Source: a virus
Lineage: Duplodnaviria > Heunggongvirae > Uroviricota > Caudoviricetes
IMG/VR virus record: IMGVR_UViG_2740892235_000009
Reading direction: 5' to 3' (one strand)
DNA: 6,421 nt
Each line of letters starts with the position of its first letter. Within the stretch, counting starts at the first letter, position 1. The translations under genes were made by a program, and so were the position numbers. Below, in pieces: positions 2,893 through 3,836 of the stretch. The notes beneath the pieces were generated by a model, which was given only the letters and a program-made list of their open reading frames with translations, was not told the DNA's origin and ran no database searches.

Positions 2893-3055
2893 ATAGTGAA
2901 TCCCCCTGTGCGGAGGGGCGTCTGACATGGTCTCCATAGCGATGGTCACAATACGCAGATTCAGTAGTCAGGCTGAATCTACCGGGAGGCACCCGGCACT
3001 ATGCTGCTTATGGTGTATACATAGCGATCGGCCCCTCTCCGGAGGGGCTTTTTTT
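2893..3055 (+). ncRNA. Small-RNA cassette B1
   Basis: Promoter-like -35 TTGTCT (2855-2860), 17-bp spacer, TAAAAA (2878-2883). 5' end CATAGTGAAT with partner CACTATG after the central hairpin (compensatory change relative to other units). Terminator GCCCCTCTCCGGAGGGGC (3031-3048) plus T7. Confidence 0.6.
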
Positions 3056-3151
3056 GTGCGGGAAAAGGCTGTGTTGTTAAGTGTTAAATTCCTCACAGTT
3101 CAGATGGTTGATGCTTGCCTGTCTGAGGGGGAGTTGTTAAAAAAGTTCTGC

Positions 3152-3325
3152 ATGGTGAATCCCCCTGTGCGGAGGGGCGACTGGTGTGATTTGCATCTTT
3201 TCTGTTGTAGGCAATGCAAACGCGGGTTCAGGGACACCAGACTGGACTCACCGGGAGGCACCCGGCACCATGTTCATGATGATACAGATACGCAGTGTCA
3301 GCCCCTCTCCTGAGGGGCTTTTTTA
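3152..3325 (+). ncRNA. Small-RNA cassette B2
   Basis: -35 TTGCCT (3115-3120), 17-bp spacer, TGtTAAAAA (3135-3143). 5' CATGGTG / partner CACCATG. Terminator GCCCCTCTCCTGAGGGGC (3301-3318) plus T6. Confidence 0.6.
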
Positions 3326-3421
3326 TGCAGGAAAAACGCTGTGTTGTGAAATGTTAAATTCCTCACAGTTCAGATGGTTGATGCTTGCCTGTCTTACGGG
3401 GAGTTGTTAAAAAAGTTCTGC

Positions 3422-3585
3422 ATGGTGAATCCCCCTGAGCGGAGGGGCATATCAGCGCAGGTGTTTCTACTCTATCCTTTCTGTGCGGGTTCAGGTGCTG
3501 ATACTGAACTCACCGGGAGGCACCCGGCATCATGCATATGGTTAACAGACACGTAGCGAAGCCCCTCTCCGGAGGGGCTTTTTTA
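3422..3585 (+). ncRNA. Small-RNA cassette B3
   Basis: -35 TTGCCT (3385-3390), 17-bp spacer, TAAAAA (3408-3413). 5' CATGGTG with partner CATCATG (one G-U wobble). 5' hairpin loop variant GAGCGG. Terminator GCCCCTCTCCGGAGGGGC (3561-3578) plus T6. Confidence 0.6.
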
Positions 3586-3682
3586 TGCAGGGAAAAGGCT
3601 GTGTTGTGAAATGTTAAATTCCTCACAATTCATGAGGTTGATGATTGTCTGATTGATGAGGAGTTTGTTAAAAAAAACGGGC

Positions 3683-3836
3683 ATGGTGAATCCCCCTGTG
3701 CGGAGGGGTGATATCGTATCATTTCCTGTGTGGCCGACTGATATCACGGACATTTGTTCACCGGGAGGCACCCGGCACCATGCAGTATACAGAGATTAGG
3801 CATACATCCAGGCTCCTCATCGCAGGAGCCTTTTTA
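3683..3836 (+). ncRNA. Small-RNA cassette B4
   Basis: -35 TTGTCT (3645-3650), spacer, TTAAAAAA (3668-3675). 5' CATGGTG / partner CACCATG. Terminator of different sequence but same shape: GGCTCCT-CATCGC-AGGAGCC (3811-3830) plus T5. Followed by the conserved leader instead of another unit. Confidence 0.55.

Follow-up and report, generated by a model that had tools for sequence, protein, structure and literature searches.

The 6,421-nucleotide (nt) stretch of DNA considered here (the window), from the Caudoviricetes record IMGVR_UViG_2740892235_000009 of IMG/VR, carries six small RNA (sRNA) genes, designated units A, B1, B2, B3, B4 and C. In the + strand RNA of these units and their relatives there is selection for three helices, P1, P3 and P4. 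P1 joins the 5′ end of the RNA to a segment just 3′ of a central hairpin (P5), P4 is a hairpin enclosed by P1, and P3 pairs a strand located directly after another hairpin (P2) with the apical loop of P4. The strands are interleaved in the order P3 5′, P4 5′, P3 3′, P4 3′, and both helices surpass slid and shuffled controls; therefore, P3 and P4 constitute either a pseudoknot or two alternative folds. According to matches with an Rfam model, the units are members of the STnc100 / EcOnc27 / sRNA103 family of prophage-encoded Hfq-binding sRNAs, related to PasD. The family is already known and P1 is already present in its Rfam consensus. The P3 pairing and the array of four genes, B1–B4, seem to be undescribed in the literature consulted, and they refine the existing picture without changing it.

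In an Rfam scan, RF02076 (STnc100) matched the window six times at full length, always on the + strand and over model positions 1-206 of 206, with scores of 119.5-172.4 bits (the gathering score is 47 bits). The units are 155-177 nt long, each with its own terminator. The interval 2893-3836, singled out in an earlier note made from the sequence letters, corresponds to the tandem units B1–B4, for which Tandem Repeats Finder gives a period of 270 nt and 82% identity; units A (919-1093) and C (4731-4907) lie outside it. The anatomy of the units, all on the + strand, is as follows.

919-1093, + strand: unit A, a solitary sRNA gene (Rfam match 890-1102, 172.4 bits); P1 919-926 / 1038-1045; P3 950-956 / 1006-1012 (CUGGUGA/UCACCGG, one U-G); P4 996-1003 / 1014-1021; P5 1023-1037; terminator 1073-1093.
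2891-3055, + strand: unit B1 sRNA gene (Rfam match 2862-3057, 119.5 bits); P1 2891-2898 / 2997-3004 (GCAUAGUG/CACUAUGC); P2 2903-2918; P3 2921-2926 / 2967-2972 (UCUGAC/GUCAGG); P4 2957-2964 / 2973-2980 (AGAUUCAG/CUGAAUCU); P5 2982-2996; linker 3005-3030; terminator 3031-3055.
3150-3324, + strand: unit B2 sRNA gene (Rfam match 3121-3330, 140.8 bits); P1 3150-3157 / 3266-3273; P2 3162-3177; P3 3181-3187 / 3234-3240 (CUGGUGU/ACACCAG); P4 3224-3231 / 3242-3249; P5 3251-3265; linker 3274-3300; terminator 3301-3324.
3420-3584, + strand: unit B3 sRNA gene (Rfam match 3392-3590, 141.7 bits); P1 3420-3427 / 3528-3535 (3′ strand CAUCAUGC, one G-U); P2 3432-3447; P3 3450-3456 / 3497-3503 (UAUCAGC/GCUGAUA); P4 3487-3494 / 3504-3511; P5 3513-3527; linker 3536-3560; terminator 3561-3584.
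3681-3835, + strand: unit B4 sRNA gene (Rfam match 3652-3841, 141.3 bits); P1 3681-3688 / 3776-3783; P2 3693-3708; P3 3709-3715 / 3740-3746 (UGAUAUC/GAUAUCA, an ordinary hairpin); a small 4-bp hairpin 3748-3759 in place of P4; P5 3761-3775; linker 3784-3810; divergent terminator 3811-3835 (GGCUCCU/AGGAGCC).
4731-4907, + strand: unit C sRNA gene, the equivalent of EcOnc27 / sRNA103 (Rfam match 4702-4916, 159.1 bits); P1 4731-4738 / 4852-4859; P3 4762-4768 / 4820-4826 (CUGGUGU/ACACCGG).

Among the window units, identity amounts to 97% in the first 28 nt, 95% in P5 together with the P1 3′ strand, 85% in the terminator, 74% in the upstream region, 66% in the linker and 59% in the insert. RNAalifold, applied to the six units, returns P1, P2 (CCCC/GGGG), P4 (GGGUUCAG/CUGAACUC), P5 (CCGGG/CCCGG) and the terminator, that is, all of the helices of the RF02076 consensus; unit B4 is the exception, having no GGGUUCAG-type hairpin. 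The minimum-energy folds given by RNAfold contain P1, P2, P4, P5 and the terminator in B1–B3, and P3 plus the small 4-bp hairpin at the site of P4 in B4. The terminators have 8-pair stems in all six units, with GCCCCUC/GAGGGGC in five and GGCUCCU/AGGAGCC in B4, and the earlier observation that these stems vary while staying paired is correct.

In units A, B2, B4 and C, the 5′ strand of P1, GCAUGGUG, pairs with CACCAUGC, located just 3′ of the CCGGGAGGCACCCGG hairpin. In B1, GCAUAGUG pairs with CACUAUGC, a double change from G-C to A-U, and in B3 the partner CAUCAUGC gives one G-U wobble. The earlier note had proposed this 5′-end helix (CAUGGUG/CACCAUG) with the in-step change in B1 and the G-U pair in B3, and every sequence that it quoted is present in the window. 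Taken alone, however, the window offers one double change plus wobbles, and this support is modest because the copies are paralogues.

Pattern scans, directed at the P5 hairpin and at the 5′ end, supplied 286 loci as relatives. Most are from viral contigs and a few are from Kosakonia, Pluralibacter, Enterobacter, Salmonella diarizonae and Citrobacter. A scan of genome contigs with CCGGGAGGCACCCGG produced mostly chance matches in high-GC genomes; seven of its loci were recovered by nhmmer and a model search later added two, the recovered loci belonging to Enterobacteriaceae where the record title is shown. The main alignment, made with MAFFT blind to structure, comprised 58 distinct 5′ domains; the figures below refer to it unless another sample is named, and the controls were sliding of the partner strand and 500 shuffles. 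The second alignment was made with a covariance model built without P3, by realigning 109 distinct rows.

For the whole structure, 86.3% of cells are paired compared with 40-46% in slid controls, double changes occur in 21 of 32 pairs, and the covariation score is 0.29 (slid, 0.06-0.12); in the covariance-model alignment, 93.7% of cells are paired. For P1, 89.9% of cells are paired (slid, 16-60%), with double changes in 6 of 8 pairs and a covariation score of 0.346 (slid, up to 0.20); the covariance-model alignment gives 91.8% and double changes in 8 of 8 pairs. None of the 500 shuffles reached the observed covariation score for the whole structure, P1, P3 or P4. With the relatives included, the support for the earlier observation is strong, indeed decisive. 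The non-Watson–Crick cells comprise 160 G-U and 52 A-C combinations, and this excess of G-U indicates pairing in the + strand RNA. A Pfam search of the mechanically derived open reading frames (ORFs) across the array found no family, and protein coding was rejected for the array for this reason. Together with compensatory change in all of the varying helices, these data agree with the earlier view that selection acts here on RNA structure and not on a protein.

The inner pairing P3 is more variable in sequence. CUGGUG pairs with CACCAG in B2 and, with one U-G wobble, with CACCGG in A and C, as had been noticed earlier; the inner strands of B1, B3 and B4, which had been overlooked, are wholly different yet complementary. 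Within the window, the shuffle p-value of P3 is 0.0075-0.10 per unit, and the unit's own partner scores highest or joint highest. In the relatives, 74.9% of P3 cells are paired (slid, 28-48%), double changes are found in 7 of 7 pairs and the covariation score is 0.482 (slid, up to 0.21). The corresponding values for P4 are 76.2% (slid, 31-52%), 8 of 8 pairs and 0.390 (slid, up to 0.18). A register-free test sought, in 156 distinct units, the upstream segment, at whatever position, that best complements the P4 loop. The mean score was 6.18, compared with 4.37 for reversed and 4.51 for shuffled loops, and the best complement started at nt 28-36, directly after P2, in 130 of the 156 units (about 16% expected by chance). 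When P3 partners were permuted among cluster representatives, none of 5000 permutations reached the observed score with 15 clusters, and likewise with 23. The 156 units contain 88 distinct P3 strand combinations, and P3 persists among the sampled prophage relatives from Enterobacteriaceae. It is also kept in divergent subfamilies with another P2, as CAGUUAA/UUAACUG, AAGGUUG/CAACCUU or AGACUGACA/UGUCAGUCU.

In units A, B1, B2, B3 and C and in 79 of 93 distinct relatives, the apical loop of P4 contains the 3′ strand of P3, with 0-3 loop nt left unpaired on each side. The earlier note had described a nested fold, with the second pairing simply bracketing the variable segment. This holds for B4, the only truly nested unit in the window, in which no P4 surrounds the P3 3′ strand; in A, B1, B2, B3 and C that strand is placed in the loop of a covarying P4, and the nested description fails. 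Two interleaved covarying helices are reminiscent of H-type pseudoknots and of loop-to-strand kissing pairings, but the segments that flank the loop strand are only 0-3 nt long, unlike those of a classical H-type knot, and the geometry is nearer to that of a kissing loop.

Of 122 units collected via the 5′ end, 114 have an exact P5, and the other eight carry uncompensated single substitutions. Several related loci (L050, L122, L124, L137, L149, L153, L142 and others) form a divergent subfamily that scores 40-50 bits with the model built in this analysis. It keeps GUGAAU, P1, P3, P4 and P5, and by eye its CCCC/GGGG hairpin is replaced, for example by UGCG-GCUAUG-CGCA; P2 therefore varies outside the main clade.

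STnc100 is a gammaproteobacterial sRNA first seen in Hfq co-immunoprecipitation from Salmonella. Lambdoid prophages carry the family at their stx/moron locus, between the Q/PR′ region and the lysis genes. The consensus of RF02076 already has P1 (GcaUGGUG/CACCAugC), P2, P4, P5 and the terminator. Its structure line has no P3 and instead places two 3-bp stems in the variable region; these were rejected here, since cmscan flags them as non-pairing ('v' marks) in most window units. The model's first position, moreover, falls about 29 nt before the likely start of transcription, within the promoter. Tree et al. (2014) described the convergent Hfq-bound sRNAs AsxR and EcOnc27 3′ of stx2B and similar pairs in eight prophages of Escherichia coli O157 Sakai. 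Later papers equate EcOnc27 with sRNA103 of EDL933 (Gruber & Sperandio 2015) and with the STnc100 annotation. EcOnc27 is backed by northern blots and by cross-linking and analysis of cDNA (CRAC) with Hfq, and overexpression of EcOnc27/sRNA103 raises fimZ and espA transcript levels. A 2025 paper reports STnc100 in outer-membrane vesicles, with one copy 75 nt downstream of stx2. Like Sakai EcOnc27, unit C is located just 3′ of stx2B, on the same strand and convergent with an AsxR position; B1–B4, however, form a tandem array in a non-Shiga toxin (non-Stx) prophage, whereas the published descriptions consulted concern single genes or dyads with a convergent partner. AsxR and AgvB occupy the same type of locus, as convergent partners in dyads of Hfq-binding sRNAs, but they are encoded on the opposite strand, are 51-60 nt long, conserved over about 42 nt in the 3′ part and variable at the 5′ end, and lack a structured 5′ domain. 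The window units, 155-177 nt long and on the other strand of the dyad, do not belong to this class.

[quoted passage not shown] According to a 2026 preprint from the Storz laboratory (Zhu, Shabalina & Storz), PasD1 and PasD2 share an ancestor with STnc100; PasA and PasD occur as dispersed, not tandem, copies, and the RNAalifold structures come with no mention of a pseudoknot. P3 is thus missing both from the RF02076 structure line and from the nested-only folding of that preprint. PasD1 and PasD2 resemble the window units in the 5′ end GCAUGGUGAAUCC, P1, a P2-like hairpin, P4, a length of 172 nt and a prophage position upstream of an esterase gene, and PasD2 has the strand-to-loop P3 with a new sequence, AAUGAUC/GAUCAUU. 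They differ in the loss of the P5 hairpin and in the linker and seed, and score 41 bits with STnc100, below the threshold of 47; a search with a model made of STnc100 units missed PasD at E<=1e-4. By these sequence comparisons, PasD is a related family and not the same one as the window units. The mapped ends of PasD2 (NC_011601 741157-741328) extend from the G of GCAUGGUG to the terminator U-run, and the RNA 5′ end predicted in the earlier note agrees with this mapped start. The motif common to the RIL-seq targets of PasD, CUCACA, has its complement in UGUGAG, the experimentally inferred seed of PasD, which immediately precedes the terminator within the linker. Expression and Hfq association of the window units are known only by homology to EcOnc27 and PasD.

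Taken together, these data make it likely that the units are independently transcribed sRNA genes of about 165-180 nt built of two modules, with loop-to-strand pairing of P3 and P4 and with the seed in the linker. The first module would be a structured 5′ domain of about 110-130 nt, in which P1 clamps the extreme 5′ end to the segment after P5. Inside P1 would lie P2, near-invariant in the main clade, then the hypervariable insert, P4 and the sequence-invariant P5; the strand after P2 would pair with the P4 apical loop, tying the pseudoknot and closing off the variable insert. This domain presumably serves mainly to stabilise and scaffold the RNA. The second module would comprise a variable single-stranded linker of about 25 nt, A/U-rich across the family, and the Rho-independent terminator, the usual Hfq-binding and seed module. 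The linker is the putative seed of the window units, by extrapolation from PasD. Units B1–B4 share promoter, scaffold and terminator but differ in insert, linker and P3; therefore, the four tandem units probably act as four regulators with different targets. Two other assignments were considered for the variable parts and rejected. A CU-rich anti-Shine–Dalgarno seed in the insert, suggested by B2, B3 and B4, is contradicted by the family composition, which is not CU-rich (pyrimidine runs of 4.24 compared with 3.85 in shuffled sequences), and by the mapping of the PasD seed to the linker. Orthogonal P3 sequences avoiding misfolding between tandem units are contradicted by two arrays on other viral contigs (L144 and L160) that carry near-identical P3 strands. 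A more speculative view, which we consider rather unlikely, makes the 5′ domain an autonomous functional module, either a protein-binding or nuclease-blocking fold or a P3/P4 switch gating sRNA activity; if so, tandem arrays would be banks of modules with different specificities.

The balance tips slightly towards simultaneous formation of P3 and P4 as a pseudoknot, because the same molecules retain both helices and 6-7 nt of the P4 loop are typically paired in P3. Fully paired loops of 6-7 nt are sterically allowed, and seen, in kissing-loop complexes. Several points weigh against the model. The nested-only energies of the P3 fold and the P4 fold differ by 0.7 kcal/mol on average, with the P3 fold equal or lower in 36 of 93 units; thus, thermodynamics does not decide, and a switch fits equally well. 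P3 occupies about 76% of the P4 loop, which has 6-10 nt in most units, and this is sterically tight; terminal P3 pairs may therefore not all form. Alignment cells are not phylogenetically independent, and the covariation statistics ignore kinship. The invariance of P5 and P2 is partly circular because the sample was fetched by exact match to one or other of these hairpins, although most units anchored on the 5′ end also have an exact P5. Finally, the linker seed is extrapolated from PasD, itself a sub-threshold match to STnc100. The near-equal energies, the 0-3 free nt on either side of P3 and the existence of B4-type units that manage without P4 would also suit a bistable 5′ domain, in which P3 and P4 are mutually exclusive conformers exposing or hiding the P4 loop or the insert; the domain would alternate between the nested fold of the earlier note, with P3 formed and P4 open, and the Rfam fold, with P4 formed and P3 open. 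We regard such a switch as possible, though not probable: P3 and P4 covary in the same sequences, as is expected for a pseudoknot too, loops of 6-7 nt can be fully paired in kissing-loop complexes, and we know of no trigger or effector.

Two further explanations concern the nature of the units as such. They might be cis-acting elements of the late transcript, for example an attenuator or a processing or stability signal for the esterase and lysis genes, given that they form part of a late operon antiterminated by Q, with the SASA esterase gene directly downstream, and that each ends in a terminator. This is improbable, since a promoter-like region precedes each unit and, in relatives, Hfq-bound RNAs of about 172 nt build up as separate species that share the same ends. 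An alternative hairpin, in which the P1 3′ strand would pair with a CAUGGUG repeat present in the A, C and B1 linkers and might thereby release the 5′ end from P1, is not conserved in the family and was rejected (cognate score 2.99, non-cognate 3.21). The terminators do not covary with the 5′ domain either: a long-range pairing of P2 with the terminator, present in the minimum-energy folds of A and C, was rejected for lack of covariation, B4 and many relatives having other terminators with the same P2. It is very improbable that the complementary segments are inverted repeats at the DNA level, serving as sites of protein binding or recombination, or that their pairing was inherited by duplication without selection. 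The six copies are indeed paralogous, and the identical pairings in A, B2, B4 and C are non-independent evidence. The G-U excess, however, is expected only for + strand RNA, dozens of unrelated P3 sequences are each complementary at the same position, and slid and shuffled controls fall short of the observed values. Independently transcribed sRNAs with paired P3 and P4 remain the preferred reading.

The promoters of the units are inferred by eye from sequence: TTGCCT, an 18-nt spacer and (TGn)TAAAAA, which ends 6 nt before the G of GCAUGG. In PasD2, TTGACT-N18-TAAAAA stands in the same register and the mapped 5′ end is the same G. A consensus promoter scan called none of these sites, because the second hexamer has no final T. 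The two promoters given with coordinates are the following.

3121-3149, + strand: inferred promoter of B2, with an equivalent before every unit.
4695-4731, + strand: inferred promoter of unit C, with TTGCCT at 4695-4700, TAAAAA at 4719-4724 and +1 at G4731.

A box, TGTTAAAT(N)CCTCACAATTCAG, is conserved about 45-65 nt upstream of each unit start (within 841-918 for A). A possible operator in A and C is the inverted repeat TGACAG-ttgc-CTGTCA, which overlaps the putative −35 element. A machine-learning study of 2025 ranked single-nucleotide polymorphisms (SNPs) just upstream of the stx2-linked STnc100 copy among the best predictors of haemolytic uraemic syndrome (HUS). Its two HUS-predictive variants are +90 (a T<->C SNP) and +103 (deletion of a T), numbered from the end of stx2B. 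Counted from the stop codon at 4625-4627, these map to about 4717 and to 4727-4730, in the putative extended −10 and discriminator of unit C; both immediately precede the RNA and fall outside its folded domain.

The array with its flanks (window 2600-3960) is present with at least 99% identity in 66 complete E. coli chromosome records, and 89 of 5,426 genomes cover 80% or more of it, O113:H21 and O22:H8 strains among them. In the 25 best complete E. coli records listed, no annotated feature lies under the array, and a search of phage records found none that holds the whole array. In strain 00-3076 (NZ_CP027584), the gene order is Q antiterminator, DNA methyltransferase, tRNA-Ile, tRNA-Arg, an ORF with a TolA C-terminal domain, unit A, an AraC-type ORF, the array, a SASA-family esterase, holin and lysozyme. 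Units B1–B4 reside in a non-Stx prophage of Shiga toxin-producing E. coli lineages negative for the locus of enterocyte effacement, and the position of the array is the 'moron' site that stx occupies in Stx phages. As in the moron-site dyads of Tree et al. (2014), the units lie between the coding sequence of a moron downstream of Q/PR′ and the conserved esterase and lysis genes, and minus-strand terminators converge on A, B4 and C; B1–B3 have no convergent partner. The neighbouring features are listed below.

354-782: ORF with a TolA C-terminal domain (Pfam PF06519, E 6e-23).
1479-2204: AraC-family regulator ORF (PF12833/PF00165).
2294-2572: ORF of 92 aa with a GTG start, between the AraC-like gene and the array, with no Pfam match and no annotation in the RefSeq record.
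1131-1110, 3871-3849 and 4944-4923, − strand: convergent terminators after A, B4 and C.

The TolA-like and AraC-like ORFs occupy the place that stx would take in this non-Stx prophage, and the RefSeq annotation puts a methyltransferase pseudogene between them. The minus-strand terminators end short convergent genes after A, B4 and C (1103-1175, 3838-3910 and 4913-4990), in each of which the terminator is preceded by CACGUUUUGUUGUUUAUUCCUUGCC. By position these correspond to anti-sRNAs of the AsxR/AgvB type, and a supplement quotes an EPEC homologue to which they are similar; the Rfam models of AsxR and AgvB found no match in the window even at E<=1. AsxR has been reported 282 bp 3′ of stx2AB, in antisense.

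The window is not one contiguous locus but a scaffold of unrelated pieces from several prophages, joined by N at 4413-4422 and 6110-6119. Beyond the first run come the 3′ end of stx2B (4423-4627) and then unit C, which starts 104 nt after the stx2B stop codon; across the run, the N-terminus of an esterase (4069-4412) abuts this stx2B fragment. A second esterase gene occupies 5140-6109; after it comes a near copy of part of it, 6120-6421 being similar to about 5871-6100. Other viral contigs (L144, L160, L204 and L133) likewise bear 3-5 STnc100-type units in tandem, at a period of about 250-260 nt, which means that tandem amplification of this sRNA gene is recurrent.

The results do not alter the understanding of this class of regulators. 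In practical terms, they supply an annotation for an array that has none in those 25 records and a cleaner structure model than that of Rfam, which seems to be without a well-supported tertiary pairing and includes promoter sequence and two unsupported mini-stems. The family adjoins Shiga toxin genes. Since one STnc100 copy lies beside stx2 and SNPs predictive of HUS are found there, a correct model of the ends, the scaffold and the variable parts of these RNAs would be useful for the design of mutants and for the interpretation of variants.

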